Shown here piece by piece: positions 1,351-36,529 of a stretch of DNA of 40,622 nucleotides. A program made the position numbers and the translations under genes. Every line of letters starts with the position of its first letter. Positions within the stretch are counted from its first letter, which is position 1. The DNA is taken from IMG/VR virus record IMGVR_UViG_2534682002_000024. One strand, 5' to 3'. Source of the stretch: a virus. Its lineage: Duplodnaviria > Heunggongvirae > Uroviricota > Caudoviricetes. The notes under the pieces were generated by a model, which worked only from the letters and a program-made list of their open reading frames with translations, was not told the origin of the DNA and made no database searches.

Positions 1351-1565
1351 TTAATGGGTTTTGATGTAGCCGCGCACGCACTCTTCGACTAAGCCCCAGA
1401 ACCAGTCGCTATCAATAGTGATGCCGACTTTGGTATTAGCGGGCTTGCCAAGAACGCCCAGCTCGTCGCAGACGGTACGCCCATAACAAGGGCCACTGTT
1501 GACGTCCACTTCGACGTACATCTCCTGGGTTTTAATGCCATCAGGGTATAGCGCGGCGATTTTTT
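1351..1565 (-). pseudogene. 3' remnant of a host gene truncated by the prophage; C-terminal pattern resembles nucleoside hydrolase family
   Basis: Track ORF 1351..1581 starts with an ATG that falls inside the putative phage end repeats. The tail (PDG...YVEVDV...GRTVCD...[12 protein letters not shown]) resembles IU-nucleoside hydrolase C-termini and sits beside a nucleoside transporter. Family assignment is from memory only. Confidence 0.4.
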
Positions 1566-1640
1566 TGATACCGATTTGCATTTCATTTGATACTGCTGAA
1601 AAACGCCGATACGCAACTTATTTGATACTAAATCGGCGCT
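1564..1640 (+). repeat. Prophage right-end region with three direct TTTGATAC repeats (candidate MuA-type transposase binding sites)
   Basis: TTTGATAC occurs at 1564, 1586 and 1621. The first two are 22 bp apart, matching the periodicity of Mu end-binding sites, and a TG dinucleotide lies at 1566-1567. This is about 100 bp beyond the mom-like stop, as in Mu. Confidence 0.5.
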
Positions 1641-1674
1641 TTTCTTTTGAGTTTTAGAATGAGTTTTTAAGCGC

Positions 1675-2412
1675 TCATTCACTCTCTTTCAAACCAGTTT
1701 TAACTGTTTGTGGTTTTGGGTAAGGCTGGACTTTGAATAGCTTTGTGTTGAGGCGTTTTTTGGCCCTCTTGTTCAGAAACCGGATGTAACGAAACTGTCG
1801 GAACTTATGAACATTGGCTCTGTCAATATTAGCCCTCAGATGTTCACCTCGTTGTCCGCCTCGTTTAATGGCATTCCTGCAAATCTCGTGATACCACTCG
1901 CCATCAAGTTCATAGAATATTGATTCATGGCTGCCTACATAATCAAAATTGCTTGCCTGATACACGACACCAAGACAGCCACAACGCTCATCTGCAAACG
2001 ACTGAACCCACTGTACCTGCGGATAAAGCTGCCTGATTAGCTTGAGCGCGTAACTGATTGCCCTTGATTCGGAGTTTCTCGGCATACAGTCATGCAGCCA
2101 TAGCCGGTTAAGCTCCATATATTCTCGGTTCTGCGTACCCGTTACGACGCGTGCACCACTGTTTGGGTTAAGGGCGTAACCCCATTGCATTACGCCAACA
2201 AGTTCCCGTTCTGAAAATATGCCCAGATGAAGGTAGGAGTTATTTACGAAACGGTGGCTGTAATGTTTATTGACGATGACCAGTCTGGCCAGCCAGCAAC
2301 TTATTGTCTCAACCCGCAACTCACGGGAGCCATAACCAACGATATTGTCGTTATAGCGAATAAGTTCAGGCGTGCTGATGATTCGGGATGTGACTTGCTT
2401 TCTGTTCCCCAC
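1675..2412 (-). CDS. mom: Mom-like DNA modification protein (acyltransferase-like)
   Basis: 245-aa ORF that is the last gene before the prophage end and overlaps the 3' end of a Com-like zinc-finger gene, which is the com-mom arrangement of Mu. Size is near Mu Mom (about 231 aa). Identity rests on context, not sequence recall. Confidence 0.6.
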
Positions 2413-2566
2413 GACAGGATTTCCTTGTGTATGTGGGGTGCTCTGTGGCGCTCGGAGATGTGATTTGATTGAGGGTTTTACAGCGCGGACATTTTACTTC
2501 CAGATAACTGAAACTGGCCCGTGCCAGTAGCTTATTGCAGTGTCGGCACCGTATGTTTCGATACAT
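2366..2566 (-). CDS. com: Com-like zinc-finger translational activator
   Basis: [14 protein letters not shown]...VKCPRCK has the CxxC...CxxC spacing and residues of Mu Com (IRC.NCNKLL...CPRCK). An AGGAGG Shine-Dalgarno lies 10 nt upstream of the ATG at 2566. The track ORF begins at an upstream ATG (2611) that I consider less likely. Confidence 0.7.
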
Positions 2567-2599
2567 GGCCGCATAACCTCCTGCTTTGTTGTTGATGCC

Positions 2600-2790
2600 T
2601 TTCTCATGCAATCGATCGACAAAAACGATCGATTCGATTTGTTTAATTGATACAACAAATAGATTGAAAAGTCATCAACAATGATTCAGGTAGGTGATTA
2701 TTTACTTAAAGAAAACGAAGAGTTAGGTGGTGAAAACGATCATAAAATGATCATTTTATTGACTTTTTATATAGTGAAGGTAGGATCGCG
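2600..2790 (-). promoter_or_regulatory. GATC-rich candidate Dam/OxyR-regulated mom promoter region
   Basis: Five GATC sites (2614, 2627, 2738, 2749, 2784) within about 175 bp upstream of com in AT-rich DNA. Mu Pmom is controlled through clustered Dam sites. Confidence 0.4.
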
Positions 2791-2979
2791 CGTATATGTA
2801 GTATGTTTCAAATCAATGGGATACTACATACATAAAGAGCGACCCAGATAGCGCGAACTATTCTGGGCCGATTTAGACAATTTTGCATCAATGCTTTACT
2901 TCGAGCTCGTGGCGTATCCTATGATATTCCCCAGTCTCCTGTAAAGCAGAGATGCATAAAAAGGAGATCTTTATCATGG

Positions 2980-3147
2980 ATGAAAGAGCCTGTTTGCCCT
3001 GCCTGTAAGACTCCCTTACAGCTCATCTATCGCCGTTCTCGATCTCAAAATGGCAAGACATACAAACCAAAAAATGCTTCCTGTTTCAGGATGCTGATAT
3101 GTCCTGCCTGTTCTCCCCGGAGGGAAAATACACAAAACGTGCATTAA
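2980..3147 (+). CDS. Unlisted 55-aa double-CPAC zinc-ribbon ORF (MKEPVCPACKTPLQLIYRRSRSQNGKTYKPKNASCFRMLICPACSPRRENTQNVH)
   Basis: Found by manual translation; below the ORF track size cutoff. AGGAG at 2962-2966 precedes it. Two CPAC motifs plus a third Cys suggest a zinc ribbon. It is divergent from com-mom in an otherwise non-coding gap of about 570 bp. Confidence 0.3.
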   Translation: MKEPVCPACKTPLQLIYRRSRSQNGKTYKPKNASCFRMLICPACSPRRENTQNVH

Positions 3148-3185
3148 CAAATTCACCCGGCAGGGAAACCTGCCGGTCGGTATTG

Positions 3186-3795: not shown

Positions 3796-5835
3796 TTATT
3801 CTGTTACCGCTTTTTTCACTTCCACCACAATGCTGTCAATCAGCACCGGGTAAGTTGCATTTTTGGTGATATCCGTTACGCGGAGTTTGTCCACCGGGAA
3901 AGTTCCTACTGGTGACTGCGTCAGGGTAAACGCGGCACCATCCTGACCATCAATAACCGGAATAACCTGAAGGCTGTTATTTCCTGCAAAACGGAAGGCC
4001 AGCGTATGCCATTCATTATCAAATGCACCAAAGGTTCCCAGTTTCTGGTTATTTGTTGCCACTTTTGCATTGTGGTACATCACATTCAGGTCTTTTGCGT
4101 CTGTCTGGATGTAGAACGATGCCAGCAGATTATTCCCTGCATCCCCTGTCAGGGTGACACCCTGCGGCAGAGAGGAAACCGGCCAGTAAAGCGCCATGAC
4201 ATACTGGTTTGCCACCAGGTCGCCAGGTACTTTAAAACGACAACTGATTAAACCACCATTTTTCAGCAGTTCAGCACCAGTACCGGCATCATGATCCAGA
4301 TACCAGGATGATTTACCTGTTTCCTTGGTCAGTTTCATTGCCTTACCACCTGTGCCTCCTGCATCACTGATAATTTCAGCTTTACCGCCAGCCGGCTCCC
4401 AGCCCTGGGCTTTCAGATTTCCTTCTGACTCACTGACACGGTAAGACAGCAGTGTTGTGGTTACTGCTTCAGTTTCTGAAGGTGACGGCACTGGTGCTTC
4501 AGTTTCAGAAGATGGAACATCGGCTTTTACTGTGGTTCGCCCTGCATGAGTCAGAACAGCCGTGGCCAGACGGTCAGAAATAATACCCCGGCGCGCCCAG
4601 GCACTGAAATGGCTGGCCCGGTCCGCAGATGTCCAGGTAGCGGCACTGTTACGCCACGTTGAGCCGTAATAACCAATGGATTCAATATCCGGGTCTTCTG
4701 CCGGATTGTTGGTGGGTACATTCACGCCATTTTCATCTGTCATTAATGGAACGAAATGAATGTTTTTATCTGTTTTGTTTTTGTAGCCGCCATAGATTGC
4801 CTGGTATGCTGGTTCATTTTTCTGTTTCCAGAAATACGTGGTATCGCCACAAATCCACGGAACGCCAGCAGCACTGCCACCGGTACACTGTTCCGCCTGT
4901 TCAGCCAGGTCTGCGCGGAATTTTTCCACCATCGCCAGAAACAGCGCAGAATGCTCCGTCGGCTTCGCATCAATATCAAACTCGCCCTGCATCCACACCA
5001 CAGCAAGCAGGCGGTTTTTCGGGTTCTTCGCCAGTGCCGCTTTTGTCCGGCTGATTAAGTCCTTATACAGCGGCTTATCCACACCCCAGCGGGCTGAGTC
5101 CTCTGAAGCACCCGTGCTGTCACTGTACGTGCCGTCAGCACCCGCCGTGAATGCAGAACCACCACGGCAGCAGGGAACCAGCAGAATCCCCGCATCTGCC
5201 GGAATAAACGGCAGCAGTTTTTTGGCAATGTGAAGCCCCTGACCCACGGTGCCATATTGCCCTTTAGCCACATCCGCTTTCGGGTGATTTTTTCCACTCA
5301 TATCCTGCACATCATGCAGACAGTGGTCGGCCAGAATGATGTCGTTATACTGACAGGCTTTACCTCCCGGCGTGACTGTACTGCGACGGGCTAACTGCAT
5401 AATACGCGGTTCGGGGCGGTCATATGTCTCCGGCAGTGGCAGACCTTCACCGTAAGCCATACCGTTTGACTGACCAGCAAGAACCACCACGTAATACCAG
5501 GAAGGGGAGCTGGAAGCAGTTTCATTTCCTGACGGACGGGTATGTGTTTCAGCATTATCCCAGTCTGACGGTTCAGCAGTACCGGCAACATCAGCACTTA
5601 ACGGAATGACCGCACCAATACCCGCTCCGGTAATTTCCACACTCGGATCACCGGATACTGGCCTTACCCACAGGCAATCCCGTGTATTAAAACTGATGAG
5701 ACAGTCAGCAAATGTCATTCCTCCTTTTGTTTCGGCCGGAGGAAAGGGAGCCTCAAGAAATGCCGCTGTACCACCGGAAACTTTAACAGTAAAGTTTCCG
5801 GGCATTGATGATAGTTGAACCCATTTGGACGTCAT
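3796..5835 (-). CDS. 679-aa SGNH/SASA-type carbohydrate esterase with lectin-like beta-sandwich C-terminal domain (cargo gene)
   Basis: VVVLAGQSNGMAYGEG carries the GQSN motif typical of sialate O-acetylesterase-like (SASA/DUF303) SGNH hydrolases. No N-terminal signal peptide. An S/T/P-rich linker precedes a C-terminal region that looks like a concanavalin/laminin-G type domain. It occupies the gin to com-mom interval. Confidence 0.6.
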   Translation of the reverse strand: MTSKWVQLSSMPGNFTVKVSGGTAAFLEAPFPPAETKGGMTFADCLISFNTRDCLWVRPVSGDPSVEITGAGIGAVIPLSADVAGTAEPSDWDNAETHTRPSGNETASSSPSWYYVVVLAGQSNGMAYGEGLPLPETYDRPEPRIMQLARRSTVTPGGKACQYNDIILADHCLHDVQDMSGKNHPKADVAKGQYGTVGQGLHIAKKLLPFIPADAGILLVPCCRGGSAFTAGADGTYSDSTGASEDSARWGVDKPLYKDLISRTKAALAKNPKNRLLAVVWMQGEFDIDAKPTEHSALFLAMVEKFRADLAEQAEQCTGGSAAGVPWICGDTTYFWKQKNEPAYQAIYGGYKNKTDKNIHFVPLMTDENGVNVPTNNPAEDPDIESIGYYGSTWRNSAATWTSADRASHFSAWARRGIISDRLATAVLTHAGRTTVKADVPSSETEAPVPSPSETEAVTTTLLSYRVSESEGNLKAQGWEPAGGKAEIISDAGGTGGKAMKLTKETGKSSWYLDHDAGTGAELLKNGGLISCRFKVPGDLVANQYVMALYWPVSSLPQGVTLTGDAGNNLLASFYIQTDAKDLNVMYHNAKVATNNQKLGTFGAFDNEWHTLAFRFAGNNSLQVIPVIDGQDGAAFTLTQSPVGTFPVDKLRVTDITKNATYPVLIDSIVVEVKKAVTE

Positions 5836-5934
5836 AATAATCAGCCTGTTCCTGAATAAACTGAATTATCATATCCACAGACCGATAAACGCCATTTTGC
5901 GTTAATTCAGTAAAGGCCCAACAAAGAGAGCGTC

Positions 5935-6495
5935 TTATTTTTCCGAAACGCTCGCAGGATAATAACGATAAAGGGTTGAAAGACCGATATCAAAAATAAG
6001 TGCCACCTGTCTTCGACTGACACCCCCGGCCAGTAAACGCCCGACCTGCTCGTATTGTTCCTGCGTGAGACGGCGGGGTCTGCCGCCGGTTCGTCCCCTT
6101 TCACGGGCAGCTGCAAGACCAGCCCGTGTCCGTTCGACAATTAATTCACGCTCCATTTCTGCCAGCGCACCCATTATGTGAAAAAAGAAGCGCCCCATGG
6201 GGGTTGACGTATCAATGTTGTCAGTAAGACTACGAAAATTTATCCCCTGTTGCTGTAATTCATCTGTCAGCGCAACAAGGTGGCGCATACTGCGCCCCAG
6301 CCTGTCCAGTTTCCAGACCATCAGCGTGTCACCGGGTTTTAGTTTCTTCAGTGCCCGCTTCAGTCCCGGCCGCTGTGTCGTTTTACCACTCATTTTGTCT
6401 TCAAAAATCTGCTCACATCCTGCACATTCCAGCGCATTTCTTTGTAAACCGGTGTTCTGGTCATTTGTTGATACGCGTATATAGCCAATCAGCAT
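5935..6495 (-). CDS. gin: Gin/Pin/Hin-family serine DNA invertase
   Basis: MLIGYIRVSTNDQNTGLQRNALECAGCEQIFEDK...WKLDRLGRSMRHL is nearly identical in pattern to Gin/Pin. 186 aa. Transcribed away from the adjacent invertible segment. Confidence 0.9.
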   Translation of the reverse strand: MLIGYIRVSTNDQNTGLQRNALECAGCEQIFEDKMSGKTTQRPGLKRALKKLKPGDTLMVWKLDRLGRSMRHLVALTDELQQQGINFRSLTDNIDTSTPMGRFFFHIMGALAEMERELIVERTRAGLAAARERGRTGGRPRRLTQEQYEQVGRLLAGGVSRRQVALIFDIGLSTLYRYYPASVSEK

Positions 6496-6552
6496 GTATT
6501 TACCTTCCTTAAAAAGAGGTGGAAAAGCCTTTTAAAGTAGATATACGGCATC

Positions 6553-6578
6553 CCTGAAACCTCGGTTTACGGGATACG
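6553..6578. repeat. gix-like crossover site (gin-proximal)
   Basis: GAAACCTCGGTTTACGGGA resembles the Mu gix core (AAACCGAGGTTT) and is an inverted copy of the site at 7976-8001; 16 nt are identical. Confidence 0.7.
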
Positions 6579-6929
6579 GTAAACAGGGCCGCGAATGCCC
6601 TGCCATCAAACGGTACGGCTGTTGCAGCAAGCAGGCTGGCAAATGCCCGCAGAATCAATGGTGTCGCCTTTGACGGCACGCAGGATATAAACATTACGTC
6701 AGGAATGCCGGAATCAACGGCCAATCAGCGTTATGTTACAGGGGTAAGACTGGGAGCGCAGGCATTAAGCGGCGGACTGGAATATAATTACTCCCTGTCA
6801 TCAGGAAATGTGATTACCGGTTTTAAGACTGACGGAGACTGGGAAATGCGTGGTGGTGATGACCGTGTTTATTACAGACAGATACAATATTGTATTAATG
6901 GGCATTGGGTATCCGCTGCAAGTATTTAA
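6558..6929 (+). CDS. Silent alternative tail-fiber C-terminal cassette (S'v-like), no start codon of its own
   Basis: The frame opens directly at the gix site and reads NLGLRDTVNRAANALP...INITSGMPESTANQRY..., closely parallel to S residues NLGLRETVNKAADALP...INITSGMTQSTADGRY..., then diverges at the tip. The track lists only the ATG-started 3' part (6705..6929). Confidence 0.7.
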   Translation, partial: NLGLRDTVNRAANALPSNGTAVAASRLANARRINGVAFDGTQDINITSGMPESTANQRYVTGVRLGAQALSGGLEYNYSLSSGNVITGFKTDGDWEMRGGDDRVYYRQIQYCINGHWVSAASI

Positions 6930-7050
6930 TTAACGGGGGCATAGCACACAGCAGCCAGCATCTGAAATATGCGTTATTTCAGACAAGCATTGCCTGTATA
7001 TGGCGATAGTATTATTCCTGTTTTTATCATTGATTTACATGGTGATGTTT

Positions 7051-7572
7051 ATGCAACTGATTAATGTCAAACGATATTACCCGAAAGACAAACCCTATGG
7101 TGAGGATGTTCAGTATTTCCAGAGTGAGGACGGAAGGGATTTTTATGAATCTATCCCGCTTTTTACAAAGAAATACAAACTCTGTATTTCGCCTGTAACG
7201 GGTATTATCTGCTCTGTTGCTGAAGATGTCTCTGCTTTATATCCGGCAGGTTTTACTGTTGTTGAAGTGGACGAACTGCCGGAAGGTGTGAATATTGACG
7301 GTAACTGGCAGTTTTCTGATGGCCTGATATCAAAGGTGCCGGTAAACTGGAAGACGGTTGCTGAAAAGCGTCGCTCATCGCTGCTCCAGGAAGCCAACGA
7401 AACCGTGGATGACTGGAAAACAGAATTAAAACTGGACATGATTAGCGATGAAAATAAATTACAGCTGACGCGCTGGATGGCGTATATCCGACAGCTTAAA
7501 GAAATGCACTTTAATGATATTGCCAGTGAGGGGCATTACCAGGCGATTCCCTGGCCGGAAAAACCGGAATAA
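7051..7572 (+). CDS. Tail fiber assembly protein (Tfa/U-type chaperone)
   Basis: C-terminus ...TRWMAYIRQLKEMHFNDIASEGHYQAIPWPEKPE matches the conserved Tfa C-terminal pattern. Start placed at ATG 7051 (MQLINVKRYY) rather than the track start at 7000. Confidence 0.75.
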   Translation: MQLINVKRYYPKDKPYGEDVQYFQSEDGRDFYESIPLFTKKYKLCISPVTGIICSVAEDVSALYPAGFTVVEVDELPEGVNIDGNWQFSDGLISKVPVNWKTVAEKRRSSLLQEANETVDDWKTELKLDMISDENKLQLTRWMAYIRQLKEMHFNDIASEGHYQAIPWPEKPE

Positions 7573-7606
7573 TTCAGAGGGTGCATTCAGCACCCTTTTC
7601 TGTGGT

Positions 7607-8518
7607 TTACACTGAACTTACCGTTCTCCAGGTATTATTAATATAAATCTGAACCGGGCGATAATAGACCCCACCGATATTGTCCGCAGACCGGGAGCCG
7701 GTTTCCTGCACGTTAATACCGGAAAGCATACAACCGGAAGGTGCGCTGTAATTCCATGACATTTCATTGCCTCCGGGTGAATGATAGCTCTGTGCTCCAA
7801 GCTGAACATTCTGTACATACCGGCCATCTGCGGTTGACTGCGTCATTCCTGACGTGATGTTGATATCCAGCGTTCCGTCAAAAGGAACACCATTAATATT
7901 TCTTGGGGTGGCGAGTCTGTTTGCTGCCACGGCGGTTCCAGCCGATGGCAGGGCATCAGCAGCCTTATTTACCGTTTCCCGTAAACCGAGGTTATCGATA
8001 AAGGTTCCTTTGTCCTGGATATCCGCGCCATTCTGGTCCCTGCGCAGGTAACGGTTATCACCTTCGCTCCTGCTGTAAACATCCAGATTATTACGGGCGG
8101 TTTCCGCATTCTCCAGGTCGGCAAGGTTCTGATCCTTCGCCAGGGCATTAACGTCAGCGGGACCAAGACTGTTTTTTGTGGCAAGCGTCCCCAGACCAAG
8201 ATAACCACGGGCCAGACGCTGGGCTTCCGCACCGGCATCAGCAATTTCTTTCAGGTTGTTTTTCCGGGAAAAGGCATTCGCAGCGATAATGGCTTTAATG
8301 GACAGCGTAAGCTGGTTTAACTGCGCCTTATCCGGCTGAATACTGGCTTCAGCCAGAATATTCAGCAGTTCGGCCTGGAGAATATTCAGCCAGTCCTGAC
8401 CAATCCAGCTGATACCTTTTTGTCCGTCACCTTCGGTAAACCAGGTGGTGGTATTACTCTGCGCCGGAGCCAGTTCAGGCATATTCGCCACGCCGGAATT
8501 ATTATCAACATGGAACAT
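7607..8518 (-). CDS. Tail fiber protein S (constant N-terminal part plus currently expressed variable C-terminus)
   Basis: Follows baseplate genes and contains the gix site at about residue 175. Start placed at ATG 8518, which overlaps the upstream stop as TAATG. Confidence 0.75.
   Translation of the reverse strand: MFHVDNNSGVANMPELAPAQSNTTTWFTEGDGQKGISWIGQDWLNILQAELLNILAEASIQPDKAQLNQLTLSIKAIIAANAFSRKNNLKEIADAGAEAQRLARGYLGLGTLATKNSLGPADVNALAKDQNLADLENAETARNNLDVYSRSEGDNRYLRRDQNGADIQDKGTFIDNLGLRETVNKAADALPSAGTAVAANRLATPRNINGVPFDGTLDINITSGMTQSTADGRYVQNVQLGAQSYHSPGGNEMSWNYSAPSGCMLSGINVQETGSRSADNIGGVYYRPVQIYINNTWRTVSSV
7976..8001. repeat. gix-like crossover site inside S
   Basis: CCCGTAAACCGAGGTTATCGATAA closely resembles Mu gix (TTCCTGTAAACCGAGGTTTTGGATAA, from memory) and is inverted relative to the site at 6553-6578. 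Confidence 0.7.
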
Positions 8519-9078
8519 TAAATATTCTCCTCTTTGTGACTGTTTGCATACACGTAAATAAACGTCTGCCATGCAGGCTTATAACGGTTCAGAATACATT
8601 CCAGCGCACCACCCTCATAAATACGCAGCGGGGTGAGAATATCATCCAGCACATTCATATTCCGGTAGCCGGTTTCACTGTTTATCGTGACAATACTGAC
8701 CCACTGTGAATCCGGTGATGGCTGAATATCTATTTCATAACCAAACTCTGCCGCAAACCGGATATAAAATTCACGGTTAAGAGAGGGTTTCATCCGGTAT
8801 TTATTCCCTGCATAACGCTGACGTTCCTGAATGGTTGCGCCGGTCATATCACATTCCGGTAACCCCAGATAACGCTCCCAGTCTTCCAGCAGCAGACGGG
8901 ATGAATCAGGAAAACGTTCTGCCAGCATCTGGTTACCGGTCCAGGAAACACGCTCCGTGGAATGACTGAGGCCCAGGCACAAAGCCGCAAGAACGGATGA
9001 CGGCCGCTTATCCCATGCCAGCCCGTCAGGCAGCAACTGCAACAGGGCGCGCTGATGCGGGGTCAGGGTTACAGCCAT
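8518..9078 (-). CDS. Mu gp48-like tail/baseplate protein (P2 gpI analogue)
   Basis: Position between baseplate J and tail fiber; 186 aa; translationally coupled to neighbours. Confidence 0.6.
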   Translation of the reverse strand: MAVTLTPHQRALLQLLPDGLAWDKRPSSVLAALCLGLSHSTERVSWTGNQMLAERFPDSSRLLLEDWERYLGLPECDMTGATIQERQRYAGNKYRMKPSLNREFYIRFAAEFGYEIDIQPSPDSQWVSIVTINSETGYRNMNVLDDILTPLRIYEGGALECILNRYKPAWQTFIYVYANSHKEENI

Positions 9079-22574: not shown

Positions 22575-22695
22575 ATTGCCTCCGCATAAAGGATGAATAT
22601 AAAATAAACAGGCGGTCAGTGTACGCTTAACTGGTAAAGTCGGTGCCTGCCTCCGGGTGGATCATGTATGCGGGTTCGACCCCCGCCACTGACCG

Positions 22696-29363: not shown

Positions 29364-29826
29364 CCGCCGAACGGCGGGCCTCAAGGCCGGGGAGTTTCAC
29401 CCCCTTTGAATAAATCCAGCGGATATACTGCTTACAGGACGCGGGCATCTGCCCGGCATTGATCAGGCGCAGAAGCGTGGAGTTGCGGAAGTTCGTTTCA
29501 CCGGCCCAGAAGATCCACGAAGCCAGCGCCACAGTCTGACCACGGGTAAGCGGCACCTGAACACGCCGATCAATGGCCGCAAAGGCCCATTTCATGTCCT
29601 TTTCCAGTAGTTCCAGGCATTCTTCATCCGTCAGGGTCATACCCGGTTTCACATCCGGGCCGGTATGGCCGTAACAGATGGTGGGTGTACCGGTGGGATC
29701 GATATACGTGGAGTTTTCTTTCCCTTCCCAGTAACCGGTGTAATGCGTGGCAATCGTGAACGTCCCGGCACCGGCCAGAACAAGGGCAATCAGCTTTTTA
29801 CGCAGTGGTGCGGGGAGTTTTGGCAT
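29326..29826 (-). CDS. Endolysin, phage lysozyme family with N-terminal signal-anchor-release type hydrophobic segment
   Basis: Hydrophobic segment LIALVLAGAGTFTIA at the N-terminus, then a lysozyme-like body. No holin gene was recognised nearby. Confidence 0.75.
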   Translation of the reverse strand: MPKLPAPLRKKLIALVLAGAGTFTIATHYTGYWEGKENSTYIDPTGTPTICYGHTGPDVKPGMTLTDEECLELLEKDMKWAFAAIDRRVQVPLTRGQTVALASWIFWAGETNFRNSTLLRLINAGQMPASCKQYIRWIYSKGVKLPGLEARRSADEWLCRYDLPKV

Positions 29827-29897
29827 TGTTACGCTGTCTCATGATGTTCTCTGAGTCAGCGTAACGGTGAAGGAAAGGCGGCAGGCTTTGCGGAATA

Positions 29898-30323
29898 TCA
29901 GAAAAGTGGCGGTTGCGTTCTTGCCAGATGCAGACGGCGCTGTTCACGTATGACGGTATAAATCTGGGTTTCTGACATCCGGTAATGGCGGCGAAGGGAT
30001 TCAATTTTCTCGCCCCGGTCCCAGCGCGAAAATATCTCATTGTTTCGCAGCTCGGCAAAGAGAGATTCCCCGACCGGCAGGTAATAACCCCGTCCGCCCA
30101 TATAGGCTGCCTGAGCCGCAGCCACCTTGCGTGCCAGTTTACCGGCCAGTACCGGCTCAATCCCCTGACGCTGAAGTTCTGCGCCGGTGACTTCAACCAG
30201 TTCTGACAGGGTCCGCGGCCAGTTCTTTTTGAGAACATCATCAGGGATGTCATCAAGGCGGTCGATAAGGGCGTGCAGTTGCTCACTGTCACCACCAAAC
30301 ATGCTCATCTGAGTTTCTGCCAT
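29898..30323 (-). CDS. Mor/C-family transcriptional activator
   Basis: 141 aa; the C-terminal part (GRGYYLP ... IYTVIREQRRLHLARTQPPLF) parallels Mu Mor as I recall it. Whether it is the Mor or the C equivalent is not resolved. Confidence 0.7.
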   Translation of the reverse strand: MAETQMSMFGGDSEQLHALIDRLDDIPDDVLKKNWPRTLSELVEVTGAELQRQGIEPVLAGKLARKVAAAQAAYMGGRGYYLPVGESLFAELRNNEIFSRWDRGEKIESLRRHYRMSETQIYTVIREQRRLHLARTQPPLF

Positions 30324-30354
30324 ATCAGCCTCCGGTTCTCACGTTCCCGGTAAG

Positions 30355-30386
30355 TTTAAAATAAAAATCCCGCGTTGTGGCGGGAT
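30355..30386 (-). terminator. Intrinsic terminator downstream of gemA-like gene
   Basis: Hairpin ATCCCGC-gttgtg-GCGGGAT (30367-30386) followed on the minus strand by a T-rich run (TTTTTATTTTAAA). Confidence 0.5.
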
Positions 30387-30392
30387 TTGGGG

Positions 30393-30902
30393 TTAACGGG
30401 GAAGTGATTTTTCATACTGCCTGCAAACGGCGTCATACCCCATCAGCGTGCGTTCGGGCATTCCCATCGCGGCCAGCATTTTGCGGCGGTGCCATCGCTT
30501 GAGACGCTCCAGCACATCTGAGGCCAGGGCGGGGTGTTGCTCCAGCCACTGCCAGTTTGCCACACCTTCGCCGCCGTTCTGCGCGGCCGTCTGCGATTTC
30601 ACCCAGCGGTTAAGGGCGGTTTCCGCACCATCGGTGATAAAGCCCTGCCGGAGCATCACCTTCCAGATGGCGCGAATTTTGGCGGTCACCGTACCCGGTT
30701 TTAAGGCCCGGTTAACCGGGTTCTGACGCACTTTAAAACCGCGTTTTTTGAAAACATCCAGCACGCGGGATAACTCATCCGGTGACATATCCCGGCAGCT
30801 GGTTTTGCCGGTGGCTGCCAGCAGCGCGGATGTATAAGTCTCATCATCCAGGGCAAGCTCGCGCTTTGCCACATGAATGGCGGATATCAGTTTTCCTCTC
30901 AT
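30393..30902 (-). CDS. GemA-like protein (Mu gp16 family)
   Basis: 169 aa; sits immediately upstream of the Mor/C-type gene as gemA does in Mu. Confidence 0.65.
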   Translation of the reverse strand: MRGKLISAIHVAKRELALDDETYTSALLAATGKTSCRDMSPDELSRVLDVFKKRGFKVRQNPVNRALKPGTVTAKIRAIWKVMLRQGFITDGAETALNRWVKSQTAAQNGGEGVANWQWLEQHPALASDVLERLKRWHRRKMLAAMGMPERTLMGYDAVCRQYEKSLPR

Positions 30903-31195
30903 ACCGTATTTACCTTTTTACGGACATGGAAAGCCTTTTCTGCCTCATCCCACCGGGCATGGTGTGTTGGTGGAATAATCATTATGTGCCAGCCATCTCT
31001 GGTTGTTATCCGGCAGAAAAATTCACCGCTATATAACACAATGGCCTGCTGAATGAGCGCATCAGCCGCCCGTTCAACCGGATGTCTTTTATCAAAAAAG
31101 CAGATGATTTTTCGACATAACCACCGGGTAATAACAAATGCGCCGAAAAAGGATGTGATATATAAGCACCAGAACAACAGAGAACTATTGTCCAT
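30899..31195 (-). CDS. Hypothetical membrane protein (one N-terminal TM helix)
   Basis: 98-aa ORF; hydrophobic segment LLFWCLYITSFFGAFVI. Confidence 0.45.
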   Translation of the reverse strand: MDNSSLLFWCLYITSFFGAFVITRWLCRKIICFFDKRHPVERAADALIQQAIVLYSGEFFCRITTRDGWHIMIIPPTHHARWDEAEKAFHVRKKVNTV

Positions 31196-31382
31196 TATCT
31201 TTCTCCTTATTCACTCTTCTGCGGCATTCGGCACAGTCATCAGGGCTTTCAAATGTATCCGGCTCGCGATTATGAGCCAGATATAACCACCGTCCACATA
31301 TACTGATATTTTCGCCTGTTTTAAAAAAATGATGCTTCCTGGCCATTAGTGGCCGCGCCCATCCAGCGGGTAGACTATTCAT
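31185..31382 (-). CDS. Hypothetical 65-aa protein with possible Cys-based metal-binding motif
   Basis: Short ORF in the co-oriented early operon, containing ICGRW ... DDCAEC. Confidence 0.4.
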   Translation of the reverse strand: MNSLPAGWARPLMARKHHFFKTGENISICGRWLYLAHNREPDTFESPDDCAECRRRVNKEKDNGQ

Positions 31383-31710
31383 TTGCTTTATCCTCCATGC
31401 TGGACAGAATCATATGTATTAATGTCGGGCGTGGAGATATACGCATTTCATTAAGCGTCTGAAGGGCAGCAACAGCTGCCTGTTTATCGGTGCCTTTGGC
31501 AATTTCAGCAAGAGAATGCACAATCCATAACGGGCTTAACGCTACGGCTGAATGCAGAATCATGTCATCCATAATAATTTCTGGCATATCCCGTTTGTCA
31601 CATTCTTTATCCATAAAAGAAACGATTTTTTCTGCATCTTCCGGTTTCATGCCTCCGGCGATGAGAATTTTACGATATTCATAAGACGATCTTAATTCAA
31701 TACTCATCAT
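31375..31710 (-). CDS. Hypothetical early protein
   Basis: 111-aa ORF in the co-oriented early operon. Confidence 0.45.
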   Translation of the reverse strand: MMSIELRSSYEYRKILIAGGMKPEDAEKIVSFMDKECDKRDMPEIIMDDMILHSAVALSPLWIVHSLAEIAKGTDKQAAVAALQTLNEMRISPRPTLIHMILSSMEDKANE

Positions 31711-31722
31711 TCACCTGCCTGT

Positions 31723-32115
31723 TTAATCAGTTTCCAGTGCTTTGCTACGGGCAACAGCCTCACACTCAAAAAATACCGACTCCGGCACACGCTCCTTTAA
31801 TTCACGAACAAGAAAATCATTAACGAGTTCATGACGTCTTATATTTCTTTCCTTTTCCTCCTGGCGCAATACAGCAAGGCGGTATTCAACAGTCCGGCGT
31901 TGTTTCTGAAAGACAGCTAGTGCTTTTCTGGCAGAGTTACGCCATGTATCATCGCCACAGGGTTCGTATTCAAGCTGAAATTTAATCTCTTCAATGGTTT
32001 CTTTTATTTTTGCCAGCAAGCTAAGACAGTCGCTGATTGTCTTCAGTTTTTCATTATCAATATAACTTCTCACGCATTCACCTCCCGTCATTCCGGTAAA
32101 GCTGAAATATGGCAC
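31723..32115 (-). CDS. Hypothetical early protein (coiled-coil); start may be an internal ATG
   Basis: 130-aa ORF in the co-oriented early operon. Confidence 0.4.
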   Translation of the reverse strand: MPYFSFTGMTGGECVRSYIDNEKLKTISDCLSLLAKIKETIEEIKFQLEYEPCGDDTWRNSARKALAVFQKQRRTVEYRLAVLRQEEKERNIRRHELVNDFLVRELKERVPESVFFECEAVARSKALETD

Positions 32116-32399
32116 CAGTGCGTCACCTGTCCGTCCTCATCTTCAAGGCAGGCTCCGGTTTCTTCATCAATAAAAAAGCCTTCATACCCCATATGGCCGA
32201 TGCGCAGTTCCTGTTGGTCACCATACTGAACAATCAGCACGACAGCCTCCATATCAGGCGGAAATGCGTCATCCAGTGAATGCCAGGGATAACCGCGCAA
32301 ATCCCCGAAATAAACACCGGTCAGCGTTCCGCCACAAACCGACATTCCGGCGACACATACCAGAGGCTCGTCTGATTCAACAAATAATGTCGTTATCAT
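32088..32399 (-). CDS. Hypothetical strongly acidic early protein (candidate DNA mimic)
   Basis: 103 aa with about 19 Asp/Glu against 2 Arg and no Lys, clustered as DEETGACLEDEDGQ; translationally coupled to the upstream gene. Confidence 0.45.
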   Translation of the reverse strand: MITTLFVESDEPLVCVAGMSVCGGTLTGVYFGDLRGYPWHSLDDAFPPDMEAVVLIVQYGDQQELRIGHMGYEGFFIDEETGACLEDEDGQVTHWCHISALPE

Positions 32400-32947
32400 G
32401 GCATTAACTCCCGTAATACAACATCTTCGGCAGTCCGGCGATGGTGATAAATAAAATTCACCGTACTCTCGGATAATTCAAATTTCTCGCCTATTTCCCG
32501 GAAGGTAAGACGTCGTGGTGATTCAGCATCCCGTAATTCACGAATAAGATGAACATCATCATCAGGTATACGGGTGAAGGGCAGCAACTCTCCGTATTTT
32601 TTCATGCTTACGCCAATATATCGCGCCCGTTTGTGGACAGAATCCCGGTCTCGCCCCAGATATTCTCCTATTTGCTTACCGGTCATCGTTCTGGCATTTT
32701 TTCGGATAAATTTATCTTCATCATGTTTAAATCTTGGACGTTTGCATTTGAGCAACTCCGGGTAAGTACCGCGTAATAAAACAATCCGGTTATGTACACC
32801 CCAGAAACTTCTTTTTACCCTGACAGCAATATCCTTAACCGGGGTGGATGGATAAAGCGCAATCAGCAGTGCATCTTCTTCAGGTGTCCACGCACGGACA
32901 TGAGCGGGTGCACGGCCTTTTCGCCCCATGGGTTGTAAAATCATCAT
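32396..32947 (-). CDS. Hypothetical early protein with SANT/Myb-like WTPEEDALL motif and C-terminal HTH-like segment
   Basis: 183-aa ORF containing AWTPEEDALLIALY and LTFREIGEKFELSESTV. Confidence 0.45.
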   Translation of the reverse strand: MMILQPMGRKGRAPAHVRAWTPEEDALLIALYPSTPVKDIAVRVKRSFWGVHNRIVLLRGTYPELLKCKRPRFKHDEDKFIRKNARTMTGKQIGEYLGRDRDSVHKRARYIGVSMKKYGELLPFTRIPDDDVHLIRELRDAESPRRLTFREIGEKFELSESTVNFIYHHRRTAEDVVLRELMP

Positions 32948-32950
32948 ACA

Positions 32951-33466
32951 TCACCCCCTGACTCGCTTTTCAGCAGCATAAAACTCATCAGACAGAATTT
33001 CGGTCATTTTCTGTTTTGCGGGTTTTACGCCGCACTGAAGGTAAATCACATCGTCAACGCAGAACCACTCCACAGGGCCAAACAGGATTGCCGAGAAATC
33101 AATACCCAGCCAGAACAACAGGGCATCGGTTCTGGCATACGTGACGGGCGAATATTCACGCCACAGACTGTTAAGTTCGTCAGAGGCAGCGCACAGGGCT
33201 TTGGGAATACACGATGTGCGCGGCGTGCAGCTCCAGCCATTCGACGCAGTCGGTTTTCGCCATAAGTCGCGATGAAAAGGATATTTGTTATCCGTAAAAC
33301 GCAGTCCTTTAAAATAAAAACCATTGATACCGGATACAAATACCGACCGACAATCAACATTCAGCACGGCCTCAAGACGTTTTGCCTCATCCTTAACTTT
33401 CTTGTAGTCCTGCTGGTATTTTTGCCACGCAGCCAGCGCGGAAGGGTTTGATGTTTTAAAGAACAT
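32951..33466 (-). CDS. Hypothetical early protein
   Basis: 171-aa ORF in operon context. Confidence 0.45.
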   Translation of the reverse strand: MFFKTSNPSALAAWQKYQQDYKKVKDEAKRLEAVLNVDCRSVFVSGINGFYFKGLRFTDNKYPFHRDLWRKPTASNGWSCTPRTSCIPKALCAASDELNSLWREYSPVTYARTDALLFWLGIDFSAILFGPVEWFCVDDVIYLQCGVKPAKQKMTEILSDEFYAAEKRVRG

Positions 33467-33999
33467 TACGCCACCTCCGCAGATATCCCGGCAGGCGCAG
33501 CCGTCCGGTCAACAATCAGGTAACGCAGAACATGTTCGGTGATATTCCAGCCGCTTAAACCGCAGATAATGACACCCAGGCGAATGTCGATATACGCCAT
33601 CACAAACTGGGGCACGCCTTCTTTCATGGCCTGCTCATCAACTTCAGCCACCACATAAACGGTTTCGCAGGTCAGTACGCCCTGAGCAAATTCCCACGCC
33701 ATCGACGGAATATCATGCCCCTCAATCCACGGCAGGGATTTTCTGAAGCTGCACCACTGAACATCATCAGCCGCACCTTCCTGGCTGCATTTGCGACGAA
33801 CCGGCTGCACCGGGCGGGGACGCGGAATATCATAAAAACCGTTACATTCCGTCAGCACCCCGGCATCGACCGCATCACGCAGAAAATAAACCATCGAGGA
33901 TGGCGGCATATTCATTTTTTCAGCCAGAATGCCGCAGGTCAGACGCCCGTAAATACTCAGCCAGTTTTTAACCCCTTCAAGCACTTTTGCATCAATCAT
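33466..33999 (-). CDS. Hypothetical early protein
   Basis: 177-aa ORF in operon context. Confidence 0.45.
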   Translation of the reverse strand: MIDAKVLEGVKNWLSIYGRLTCGILAEKMNMPPSSMVYFLRDAVDAGVLTECNGFYDIPRPRPVQPVRRKCSQEGAADDVQWCSFRKSLPWIEGHDIPSMAWEFAQGVLTCETVYVVAEVDEQAMKEGVPQFVMAYIDIRLGVIICGLSGWNITEHVLRYLIVDRTAAPAGISAEVA

Positions 34000-34002
34000 G
34001 AA

Positions 34003-34545
34003 TTATTCCTCCGTCAGCGCCACATATTCAGAATGTTTAATTTCCTGGCATTCTTCAGGAATACACCCTTTTATTTCCCTGCCATAAGCGCCTACTTTAA
34101 ACACCACGCACAGGGCATCACGGGAGAGCGACGGGGTCCACCAGGAGTCCGTGTTAAACATGGAGGGGATTCTCATTACCCCCAGCTTTTCACAGAGCCA
34201 GACAAGGAAATCAGGACGCTTTCTTAACTCACGTTCAGCGGTTTCAATCATTGCGGCAATCGCCGGACCTTCAGGGCATGACTCATCAGGTCTGGCAATA
34301 AAGCACGGTCCGTCCCCGATAAAAGCCACATCATCGCGCTTACGCCAGCCCGCAGGCAGAGCACCAGAAAAATAAAACTCACTGATTACGTCCATGGCAA
34401 ACGGCTTTAAGCGCAATCCGGCAGCGCCTGTATTTTTCAGTAATGCCCGAAGAATACTGTTGCGTAGCGGTAAAACAGTCTGTTGATATTTGGTGAAATA
34501 TTTATTTGTCTGCACACGGTCTAATTTGAAATAAAAATATGCCAT
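34003..34545 (-). CDS. Hypothetical early protein
   Basis: 180-aa ORF following gam. Confidence 0.45.
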   Translation of the reverse strand: MAYFYFKLDRVQTNKYFTKYQQTVLPLRNSILRALLKNTGAAGLRLKPFAMDVISEFYFSGALPAGWRKRDDVAFIGDGPCFIARPDESCPEGPAIAAMIETAERELRKRPDFLVWLCEKLGVMRIPSMFNTDSWWTPSLSRDALCVVFKVGAYGREIKGCIPEECQEIKHSEYVALTEE

Positions 34546-34642
34546 ATATCCTGTTCCTTATTTTCAGTTTACAGGCGCAGGCAGTCCCCTGACGCGAGCG
34601 CCATAATTAAAACGAAGTGATATTTAATTGATTAATGCGGTG

Positions 34643-35173
34643 TTATTTATTCAGTCCGGCGTCCTGTTCAAAAGGCTCGACATAAAAACTTTCAGCGCCT
34701 TTATTCACCTTAATACCGGCAATCCCTTTCACCGCATCCGGCTCCGCCAGGACCGCTTCCTTGTTCACTTCCTCTTTCGTGCGGATAAAACGCTCAAGGC
34801 CCATACGGCGCAGCATTTCAATCACACCTTCCACATCACGACTGACGCTGCATGATGGATTCCCCAGTCGCCATGACACCGTTCCGGTGGTCAGATTGGC
34901 TGTTTTGGTTTTGCCGCCGTTCGTCAGCTCATCGCGGTTGGTTTTGCACCAGTCCTGAATCCCCTTAAAAAGCACTTTGATTTCTTTTTTAAGGTTTTCA
35001 ATTTGCGGCGTATAACGGGCGGTGATTTCTGCCACTTCATCATTCATCGCCGTTTCCAGCCGCAGCGCCTCTCGCTGAATATCGCCCAGGGTGCGGATAT
35101 CGCGGCTGACTTCTTCGCGGGTCTGCGGTGCAGCCTCGGCTGCGGCCTTTAATTTTGTAACACGTTTAGCCAT
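34643..35173 (-). CDS. gam: Gam-like host-nuclease inhibitor / DNA-end binding protein
   Basis: 176-aa charged helical protein at the Mu gam position; size matches Mu Gam (about 174 aa). Confidence 0.7.
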   Translation of the reverse strand: MAKRVTKLKAAAEAAPQTREEVSRDIRTLGDIQREALRLETAMNDEVAEITARYTPQIENLKKEIKVLFKGIQDWCKTNRDELTNGGKTKTANLTTGTVSWRLGNPSCSVSRDVEGVIEMLRRMGLERFIRTKEEVNKEAVLAEPDAVKGIAGIKVNKGAESFYVEPFEQDAGLNK

Positions 35174-35184
35174 TTTGTTTTTCC

Positions 35185-35478
35185 TTATTGCAGTGTGCCT
35201 GATGCTTTATGCACGCGGTGGCGTTTAATGATGGCATCCGCCCCAAAAGCCTGTACAGATGCCTGAAATTCCGCTGAGAGAAACTGAATAATTACAGGAC
35301 TGTGATACTGGAGAATGCTTGCATAAACGTCACAGAGTGACGTCGGCCTGTTATCCGTATCACGTTCTGTTTTCACATCCACTCCAATCTTTTCATGCAC
35401 TTCAACACTGTCATTGCCTGCCGGTTTTTCGTCATGCGAAACATGCTCAAATTCAAAAATAACGCGTACTTTGCTCAT
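35185..35478 (-). CDS. Hypothetical small early protein, paralog A
   Basis: Start placed at internal ATG 35478 (MSKVRVIFEFEH). N-terminus parallels the adjacent gene. Confidence 0.45.
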   Translation of the reverse strand: MSKVRVIFEFEHVSHDEKPAGNDSVEVHEKIGVDVKTERDTDNRPTSLCDVYASILQYHSPVIIQFLSAEFQASVQAFGADAIIKRHRVHKASGTLQ

Positions 35479-35482
35479 GGAA

Positions 35483-35755
35483 TTACCCCTGCTGATTAAA
35501 TTCATTACCTTTAATAACCCCGGAACTCATGTTCATATCTTTCATGAGCGCTCTGGCTTTCATTGCCACAAGTTCAGCAAAGTCTCTGCTTTCCGCGAGC
35601 ATAACCACTCCAAAAATCATGGCGGGTCCATCACCTTTCTGCTTTATCCCGGTTGAACGTATGTCCAGACTTACCCCCATGCGCACTGTTCCATCAGCGT
35701 TTTTATGGATAACGTGCTCCTTGTATTCGAAAATAATGCGTACGACTTTACTCAT
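35483..35755 (-). CDS. Hypothetical small early protein, paralog B
   Basis: MSKVVRIIFEYKEH...; the DNA around both start codons is also similar. Confidence 0.45.
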   Translation of the reverse strand: MSKVVRIIFEYKEHVIHKNADGTVRMGVSLDIRSTGIKQKGDGPAMIFGVVMLAESRDFAELVAMKARALMKDMNMSSGVIKGNEFNQQG

Positions 35756-36033
35756 CCTCTGGTCCTCGTTCTGTTTGGATAACTGACCCGGCGTCTGACC
35801 TCACGGCAGAACCGAATCATGGCATTAAAGGCTTCTTCCTCCGTCACCGCTTCCGGTATCCCCGGAACCAGTAACTGCTCCTGTTCATCACGTCCATGAC
35901 GCGCCATAACCTCAATCACATGCCGTACCGTGGCAGGCTTTCCGGCAACTATCGGCAATGCACCTTCCGGCAGGACGTAACCAAACTCAATAAGACCACT
36001 CGACCACGCCCATGCAATGAGATTTTTTTTCAC
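35752..36033 (-). CDS. Hypothetical early protein
   Basis: 93-aa ORF, translationally coupled. Confidence 0.4.
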   Translation of the reverse strand: MKKNLIAWAWSSGLIEFGYVLPEGALPIVAGKPATVRHVIEVMARHGRDEQEQLLVPGIPEAVTEEEAFNAMIRFCREVRRRVSYPNRTRTRG

Positions 36034-36034
36034 C

Positions 36035-36301
36035 TCACACCTCCCAGTAAACCGTGCAGCCGCTGATGCGGGTGGCCTTCACACGGCGGCGCAGGCCGTT
36101 GGTCTGTATGGTGATTTCAATTTCACCGGTTCCCTGCACGTTGCCTACCGGCGGCGTGGTTTTCAGTGCAAAACGTTGTGGGTAGCGCTTACTGCGTTCC
36201 AGTACCGCACCGGCAAGTTCGGTCAGACGGCGCGCGCTGTTCAGGGAGTCGAATAAATTCATTTTGTTACCGCAGGATTGCATATTCATATAACACCTCA
36301 T
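36035..36301 (-). CDS. Hypothetical early protein
   Basis: 88-aa ORF; true start possibly an internal ATG (MNLFDSLNSARRL). Confidence 0.4.
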   Translation of the reverse strand: MRCYMNMQSCGNKMNLFDSLNSARRLTELAGAVLERSKRYPQRFALKTTPPVGNVQGTGEIEITIQTNGLRRRVKATRISGCTVYWEV

Positions 36302-36529
36302 TTAGCTGACTTGTTTCGCACCAACAGAACGGCATATTCCGCTGTAAACTTCTGTCGCACCTTCGCGATCAAGTCCGGCAGATATCACCATTCGTGTGCG
36401 GTCATTAAATTCAAAAAGTAAATCGCCACATTCTTTATTTTCGGCCAGTGAAATCACCTTCACGTTATCGAAATTAACCAGGTAAAAGCGTCCGTAAATA
36501 TCAGGAATATAAAATACCGCCATAATCAC
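36302..36529 (-). CDS. Small protein at the Mu kil position
   Basis: 75 aa, immediately downstream of B; Mu Kil is about 74 aa. Assignment is positional only. Confidence 0.4.
   Translation of the reverse strand: MIMAVFYIPDIYGRFYLVNFDNVKVISLAENKECGDLLFEFNDRTRMVISAGLDREGATEVYSGICRSVGAKQVS

Follow-up and report, generated by a model that had tools for sequence, protein, structure and literature searches.

The window, a stretch of 40,622 nucleotides of DNA, contains near its beginning the genes com and mom of a Mu-like prophage. They are the final two minus-strand genes ahead of the phage end, with mom as the terminal gene of the prophage, whose end at position 1547 is located 128 nt past the mom stop codon. 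The genes and features on which our analysis is based are the following:

1547..1674, minus strand: right end of the prophage, in which three repeats of the TATCAAA type, presumably transposase sites, were read from the sequence
1675..2412, minus strand: mom, 245 aa, GUG start at 2412-2410, predicted tRNA(Gly)-dependent adenine aminoacyltransferase and last gene of the prophage
2366..2566, minus strand: com, 66-aa zinc-finger translational activator (Pfam PF10122)
2407..2438, minus strand: translation-inhibition stem-loop (TIS), in which CCCCAC (2438-2433) pairs with GUGGGG (2412-2407)
2438..2451, minus strand: predicted Com-binding RNA hairpin GCGC[CACAGA]GCAC with the loop motif CC-ACA-GAG and one C.A mismatch in the stem
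2592..2605, minus strand: candidate -10 zone of the com-mom promoter, either GAGAAA (2605-2600) or CATCAA (2597-2592), proposed from relatives only
2610..2634, no strand assigned: perfect palindrome AATCGATCG-N7-CGATCGATT with GATC at 2614 and 2627, a putative Dam-sensitive OxyR half-site
2637..2651, minus strand: candidate second OxyR half-site ATCAATTAAACAAAT, 7 nt upstream of the inner palindrome, agreeing with 6 of 10 consensus positions (hand count)
2738..2787, no strand assigned: three distal GATC sites (2738, 2749 and 2784) outside the conserved com-mom control block
29898..30323, minus strand: late activator gene of the Mor/C family, with 39% identity to Mu C (E 4e-35) and 27% to Mu Mor

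The first 1546 nucleotides of the window are E. coli chromosome, comprising nupX and the 3' part of rihB with 100% identity to many strains, and the Mu-like prophage extends from 1547 to the end of the window, which stops inside a repressor-side gene. The insertion has interrupted the host gene rihB at the junction 1546/1547, with nupX-rihB as the host flank. This boundary is supported by the observation that matches to other genomes begin at 1547, and it is equally annotated in LC727881, where a 98%-identical 'Mu-like phage' is found inside an Stx phage. The right end of the prophage (1547-1640) reads ...CGCCGCGCTATA and thus terminates in TA as opposed to the CA found in Mu. Of 5426 complete E. 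coli genomes searched, 194 contain near-identical copies of the prophage (up to 99.8% identity) at many chromosomal sites, most of these genomes being O157:H7, and the rihB junction is absent from all 5426. The same com and mom genes, annotated by PGAP, reside in Sp18-type prophages of E. coli O157:H7 and other STEC, whose DNA is 99.8% identical in many O157:H7 chromosomes, whereas the copy in the window is distinguished by its insertion in rihB; the likeness to Sp18 refers to descriptions in the literature. According to such descriptions, Sp18 encodes homologues of Mom and of Mom regulators (PMC3299994).

The relationship of the terminal gene to its counterpart in Mu is close. Its product aligns to Mu Mom over 229 aa with 79% identity and no gap and carries a 12-residue C-terminal extension relative to the Mu protein, and the DNA is about 71% identical to mom of Mu, D108 and SfMu. 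The protein matches Pfam PF25680 over profile positions 1-202 of 202 (E 2.6e-77, 259.5 bits at a cut-off of 27.1) and aligns without gaps to the solved chain of Mu Mom (PDB 8bv8_A, E 1.7e-123). The alignment to Mu Mom that the earlier note had proposed as a check thus reveals strong similarity, at odds with its impression of a divergent protein. At the level of nucleotide substitutions, the comparison with Mu mom gives a pN of 0.147 against a pS of 0.80, with synonymous sites being saturated, which shows that strong purifying selection acts on the gene. At least 1000 public contigs encode precisely this 245-aa sequence, under the name 'protein mom' or 'Mom family adenine methylcarbamoylation protein', and the near-identical gene in RefSeq is named 'tRNA(Gly)-dependent adenine aminoacyltransferase Mom'. 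Since neither Mom nor Com has a match in NCBIfam, this RefSeq name must stem from another rule.

The chemistry of the Mu enzyme was described in a study from 2026, where Mom was found to transfer glycine from Gly-tRNA(Gly) to the N6 of adenine in double-stranded DNA, with the adduct rearranging to 6-NcmdA (PMC13219725). In the same study, the variants R111A, S124A and R151A lost activity and that of D149A was greatly reduced, whereas H58, Y59, Y159, W181 and the dimer residue W48 were found to be important and an HTH-like insertion encompassing about residues 175-209 to be required (PMC13219725). All of these positions, W48, H58, Y59, R111, S124, D149, R151, Y159 and W181 in Mu numbering, are identical in the protein encoded in the window, where the residue number is that of Mu minus 8, and the Mom-specific HTH-like insertion (residues about 175-209) is identical in 28 of 35 residues. 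A GNAT fold with an HTH-like insertion is thus predicted from the match to 8bv8_A and from the identity in the insertion. At 79% identity, the protein would be expected to act late in lytic growth, transferring glycine from Gly-tRNA(Gly) to the N6 of adenine in the double-stranded DNA of the phage, and the resulting adduct would convert to 6-NcmdA, by which the phage DNA would become protected from restriction enzymes. The suggestion that the modification might differ in its chemistry, which had been made on the basis of the presumed divergence, is not supported. An enzyme installing a modification other than that of Mu Mom could be invoked in view of the 21% of residues that are unlike those of Mu Mom and the 12-residue C-terminal extension, but we ascribe next to no probability to it, given the identity of all residues implicated in activity and dimerization, the lack of gaps, the conservation of the insertion and the report that far more distant metagenomic homologues of Mom are active in the Mu Mom assay (PMC13219725).

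The gene preceding mom encodes a protein that matches the Pfam family PF10122 (Zn_ribbon_Com) with an E-value of 1.9e-12 (46.9 bits, cut-off 22.9) and that is 47% identical to Mu Com. It overlaps the 5' end of mom by 47 nt, and the described arrangement of a Com-type zinc finger overlapping the start of a terminal 245-aa gene is thus borne out by the Pfam match, the overlap and the GTG-start reading frame at 1675..2412. The cysteines are located at positions 7, 10, 26 and 29, equivalent to C6, C9, C26 and C29 of Mu Com, and the earlier assignment was thus correct for the first two residues and off by one for the second pair, which had been placed at 27 and 30. The gene order, the terminal position at the right end and the extent of the overlap, which is about 50 nt in Mu (Mup54/Mup55), are all shared with the com-mom operon of Mu, whereas the upstream neighbours differ, with a small zinc-ribbon ORF and a DUF826 gene in place of the gin gene of Mu. 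RefSeq refers to Com as a 'DNA-binding transcriptional regulator', whereas the characterized Mu Com is an RNA-binding translational activator. Some database entries list a 61-aa version of Com with a different start.

In Mu, Com binds a small hairpin with the loop motif CC(N)2-3GAG, as defined by SELEX, which adjoins the TIS, and the stem of the latter contains the GUG start of mom (PMC6483171). Both elements are found in the window, where the fold of the mRNA around the mom start, which had been proposed as a check, contains a predicted hairpin and a TIS. The hairpin is located directly 5' of the stem that sequesters the start codon, the layout of a Com-target RNA, and it can be aligned to the hairpin of Mu, AUGC[CUGCGA]GCAU, with which it shares a loop of the form CC(N)3GAG. 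The TIS, with a predicted folding energy of -12.6 kcal/mol (z -2.35) and an additional pairing of AGGA with UCCU, encloses the Shine-Dalgarno sequence AAGGAA of mom (2426-2421) and contains its GUG start in a CCCAC/GUGGG stem as in Mu. Compared to the Mu structure, the stem is longer by one G-C pair and by the additional AGGA/UCCU pairing, and the hairpin contains the C.A mismatch. For the analysis of covariation, 100 related com-mom loci were collected, from which 15 distinct junction sequences were used. Among these 15 loci, four of four stem pairs of the hairpin change on both sides with 95% of cells being paired, and the covariation score was reached by none of 500 shuffles and collapsed in all slid registers. 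The 5-bp core of the TIS (CCCAC/GUGGG) is invariant in the 15 loci. Taken by itself, the hairpin of the window is predicted to form only 2 bp. The C.A mismatch is also found in two diverged relatives of 80-82% identity (L050 and L051) and is thus not a recent lesion, whereas a third locus (L044) contains a U-A pair at the same position. Together, these features would place the Shine-Dalgarno sequence and the GUG start of mom in a locked CCCCAC...GUGGGG stem-loop, which would be opened when Com, translated from the same mRNA, binds to the adjacent hairpin; the anatomy is evident in the RNA and the binding is proposed by analogy to Mu. Nucleotide C2438 is able to pair in either the hairpin or the TIS, which might offer a simple route for Com binding to weaken the latter.

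Upstream of com, GATC sites are found at 2614, 2627, 2738, 2749 and 2784, between 51 and 221 nt from the com ATG, and the earlier count of five sites within about 175 bp is thus confirmed (2614-2787, 174 bp). It constitutes the densest 175-bp cluster of GATC sites in a phage that is otherwise mildly poor in this motif, with 129 sites in the whole window as opposed to 155 expected, which might suggest that all five sites form a single extended Dam-sensitive control region of com-mom, as had been implied. However, 21% of trials in which 129 sites were randomly distributed over 40.6 kb contained at least one cluster of five or more, and the local expectation, which varies with the composition model, is between 0.7 and 3.2 sites; the bare count of five is therefore weak evidence. 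The block that is conserved upstream of com within the phage family encompasses only about 110 bp, and two loci (L033 and L045) retain com-mom together with this proximal block but contain unrelated sequence where the distal GATC sites are located. Although two of the three distal sites recur in L050, a more distant relative, all three lie within a variable plus-strand ORF (2681..2851) that is frameshifted differently in relatives. We have also considered the distal pair as a second OxyR half-site and rejected it, as its spacing of 11 nt does not conform to a 15-nt half-site and as it is not conserved. We thus regard a control region extending over all five sites as quite unlikely. What stands of the earlier proposal is a Dam-sensitive control that is plausible for the pair of sites within the palindrome, which are the only two that are conserved in diverged com-mom loci.

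On sequence grounds, this proximal pair is clearly non-random. The palindrome consists of a 9+9 bp inverted repeat with 100% complementarity, whose 23-nt core (2611-2633) reads ATCGATCG-N7-CGATCGAT. It differs at only 2 of 23 positions from the core ATCGATCGTTTATATCGATCGAT of the operator of E. coli agn43 (flu), a match found in none of 100 shuffles, and it aligns with GATC sites II and III of agn43, which share its 13-nt spacing. The palindrome also aligns with the element AATCGATC-N9-GATCGATT of Mu Pmom, which carries the Mu GATC sites 2 and 3. In 51 of 55 distinct sequences upstream of com, a pair of GATC sites spaced by 13 or 18/19 nt is located within 130 nt of the gene, compared to a background of 0.001 per 130 nt in the same loci. 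The loci lacking such a pair (L011, L012, L094 and L098) are among the most distant, with 68-70% Mom identity, and two of them (L011 and L012) are marine. A GATC pair of the operator type is also not found upstream of com in a partly overlapping set of distant com-mom loci (L010, L011, L012, L095 and L098), some from marine gammaproteobacteria, three of which contain no GATC within 250 nt of com. These five loci share an inverted repeat CCACAGTGA...CACTGTGAACC and a GCCTATCA box upstream of com, a pattern that suggests a different transcriptional control.

In the gtr operon of P22, a pair of GATC sites with 13-bp spacing is contained within one OxyR half-site, and methylation abolishes the binding of OxyR (PMC2909390). 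Similarly, the promoter Pmom of Mu is jointly governed by Dam and OxyR (PMC3378877). In light of the gtr precedent and of the control described for Mu, it is well founded to infer a Dam-sensitive control by OxyR also for this com-mom operon. The palindrome just upstream of com would in this case act as an OxyR half-site, from which OxyR would be kept off by Dam methylation of the two GATC sites. Both dam and oxyR are present in the E. coli host. An upstream GATC palindrome is common to Mu and the window, and GATC sites are found in an OxyR-type operator upstream of com in both cases, although three conserved sites are present in Mu, as in agn43, and only two here, where the first is missing. 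A second OxyR half-site at 2637..2651, which shares ATCAATTAAA with Mu Pmom, is a weak candidate.

The presumed operator and the promoter are positioned differently from Mu. The positions of the Mu OxyR and C sites used for the comparison are in part those described in two reports (PMC3378877; PMC4461284). The order found in Mu, with the operator followed by a separate C site (TTAT-N6-ATAA) and a -10 element TAAGAT, is not present in the window. The distance between the second GATC and the com ATG is only 47 nt compared to about 74 nt in Mu, and a succession of operator, C site, -35/-10 elements and leader as in Mu can therefore not be accommodated. The palindrome is 27 bp closer to com, with GATC sites at -64 and -51 instead of -91 and -78, and at so short a distance from the com ATG (51-64 nt) its overlap with the core promoter in the -35/spacer zone is unavoidable. 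In relatives, TATACT, TATAGT or GATAAA is found 8-9 nt after the second GATC, where the window contains GAGAAA, and TATCAT or TATCAA 16 nt after it, where the window contains CATCAA. With either of these -10 candidates, the palindrome would come to lie over the -35/spacer zone and the GATC sites at roughly -45/-32 or -37/-24. A scan with the sigma-70 consensus did not detect a minus-strand promoter between the palindrome and com, as would be expected for a promoter that depends on an activator. Upstream of com, neither the Mu C-binding site (TTATGCCCCAATAA) nor the Mu -10 element TAAGAT is recognizable, and a search for a C-activator motif common to this region and to the presumed lys, I and other late intergenic regions returned only trivial 9-mers with one mismatch.

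As in Mu, a C-type late activator is encoded elsewhere in the genome. The gene at 29898..30323 is the sole Mor/C-family gene annotated by PGAP in a near-identical prophage, and its product is likely to activate the com-mom promoter. Following the exclusion of OxyR by Dam methylation, this C-like activator would then drive a weak com-mom promoter. The convergent DUF826 and zinc-ribbon genes are separated by a GC-rich hairpin (3157-3177), an indication that com-mom has a promoter of its own; the hairpin probably insulates com-mom from the tail operon.

The same activator also enters an alternative account of the palindrome, in which the element is bound by a protein other than OxyR, either the C-like activator or another dimer, and in which the GATC sites are incidental to a dyad of the CGATCG type. 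Such an account would be in accord with the location of the palindrome roughly where C binds in Mu relative to com, with the absence of a recognizable separate C site and with the binding of Mor/C proteins to dyad sites (PMC2582627). However, the counterpart of the element in Mu is located upstream of the mapped C site and is separate from it, the agn43 operator, which differs at 2 of 23 positions, works without a phage protein, and no similar palindrome is found upstream of other presumed late genes. We thus consider a binder other than OxyR to be unlikely, although it retains some weight, and continue to favour OxyR as the protein recognizing the palindrome.

The compacted geometry, in which the distance from the presumed operator to com is 27 bp shorter than that in Mu, is only a modest novelty. 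A more far-reaching interpretation would hold that the OxyR/Dam operator has in this lineage been moved onto the core com-mom promoter, where it may, together with the distal GATC pair, constitute a heritable on/off switch of the kind found in gtr and agn43. As in the window, the GATC pairs of P22 gtr are spaced by 13 bp with each contained in one OxyR half-site, and the promoter-proximal pair at -46/-33 overlaps the promoter, in line with the geometry that we infer for the palindrome. However, the phase variation of gtr involves two GATC pairs and three half-sites, whereas only one OxyR-like pair is evident in the window. The agn43 system, in which a third GATC is located 19 nt upstream and the operator just downstream of the -10 element, confers phase variation on a host adhesin and does not need a phage activator. 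We regard such a switch as highly doubtful, but if it existed, lysogens would differ from one another in the epigenetic state of mom, or in that of the divergent zinc-ribbon gene, instead of relying on a simple late-lytic gate.

Collectively, the module in the window is genuine, intact and entirely conventional, and it is already annotated and described in the literature. It is very likely an orthologue of the com-mom operon of phage Mu, residing in a Mu-like prophage of the Sp18 type in E. coli and gated twice, at the level of translation and of transcription, as in Mu. The view that it is instead a silent relic in a defective prophage might be raised since many O157 prophages are defective and since a neighbouring plus-strand ORF is frameshifted. 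Still, neither of the two reading frames is disrupted, the RNA elements of the regulation have been conserved, the extent of nonsynonymous change compared to Mu is low, and Sp18 was judged to be intact in silico (PMC2669165). In addition, the presence of the prophage at many chromosomal sites in the 194 complete genomes indicates recent transposition, and we thus deem a silent relic very improbable. Beyond its correct annotation, the orthologous module is of little significance, as it represents a standard anti-restriction system with an enzyme chemistry that was worked out in 2026 on the Mu protein, to which Mom of the window is 79% identical. As a small comparative addition, our analysis identifies the GATC palindrome of fixed spacing as a conserved companion of com-mom in enterobacterial Mu-like phages, whose distance to com differs between lineages, which could be of interest to researchers studying Dam/OxyR switches.

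Several observations concern the surroundings of the module. The region between com and the DUF826 gene (window 2681-3147, plus strand) is a variable cargo spot. It contains the ORF at 2681..2851, which is disrupted by frameshifts that vary from one copy of the prophage to another, and a 55-aa zinc-ribbon ORF (2980..3147, plus strand) with a CPAC...CPAC pattern that is kept in relatives including L050 and L051; in the annotation by PGAP, both are treated as a single frameshifted hypothetical gene. A perfect 10-bp inverted repeat TATGTAGTAT-N16-ATACTACATA without a T-run (2795-2830) is kept in the diverged L050 and L051. Further into the prophage, an invertase-like gene (5935..6495) adjoins oppositely oriented tail-fibre fragments, and this arrangement (5935-7572) fits the 'invertible host-specificity region distinct from Mu' of Sp18. 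A search of the whole window against Rfam at gathering thresholds gave no match and ARAGORN did not detect a tRNA in it; both are thus silent at about 22600-22690, which corresponds to a feature that PGAP annotates as 'tRNA-OTHER' in a near-identical prophage (L003 21973-22052). Finally, the frequency of GATC varies along the prophage, with normal values in the structural block at 9000-29700 (102 sites compared to 87-123 expected) and a depletion in two regions, one at 3800-9000 encompassing the DUF6645, invertase and tail-fibre genes (3 sites compared to 15-17 expected) and the other at 29700-36400, which extends from the activator to the early-gene region (2 sites compared to 22-24 expected).
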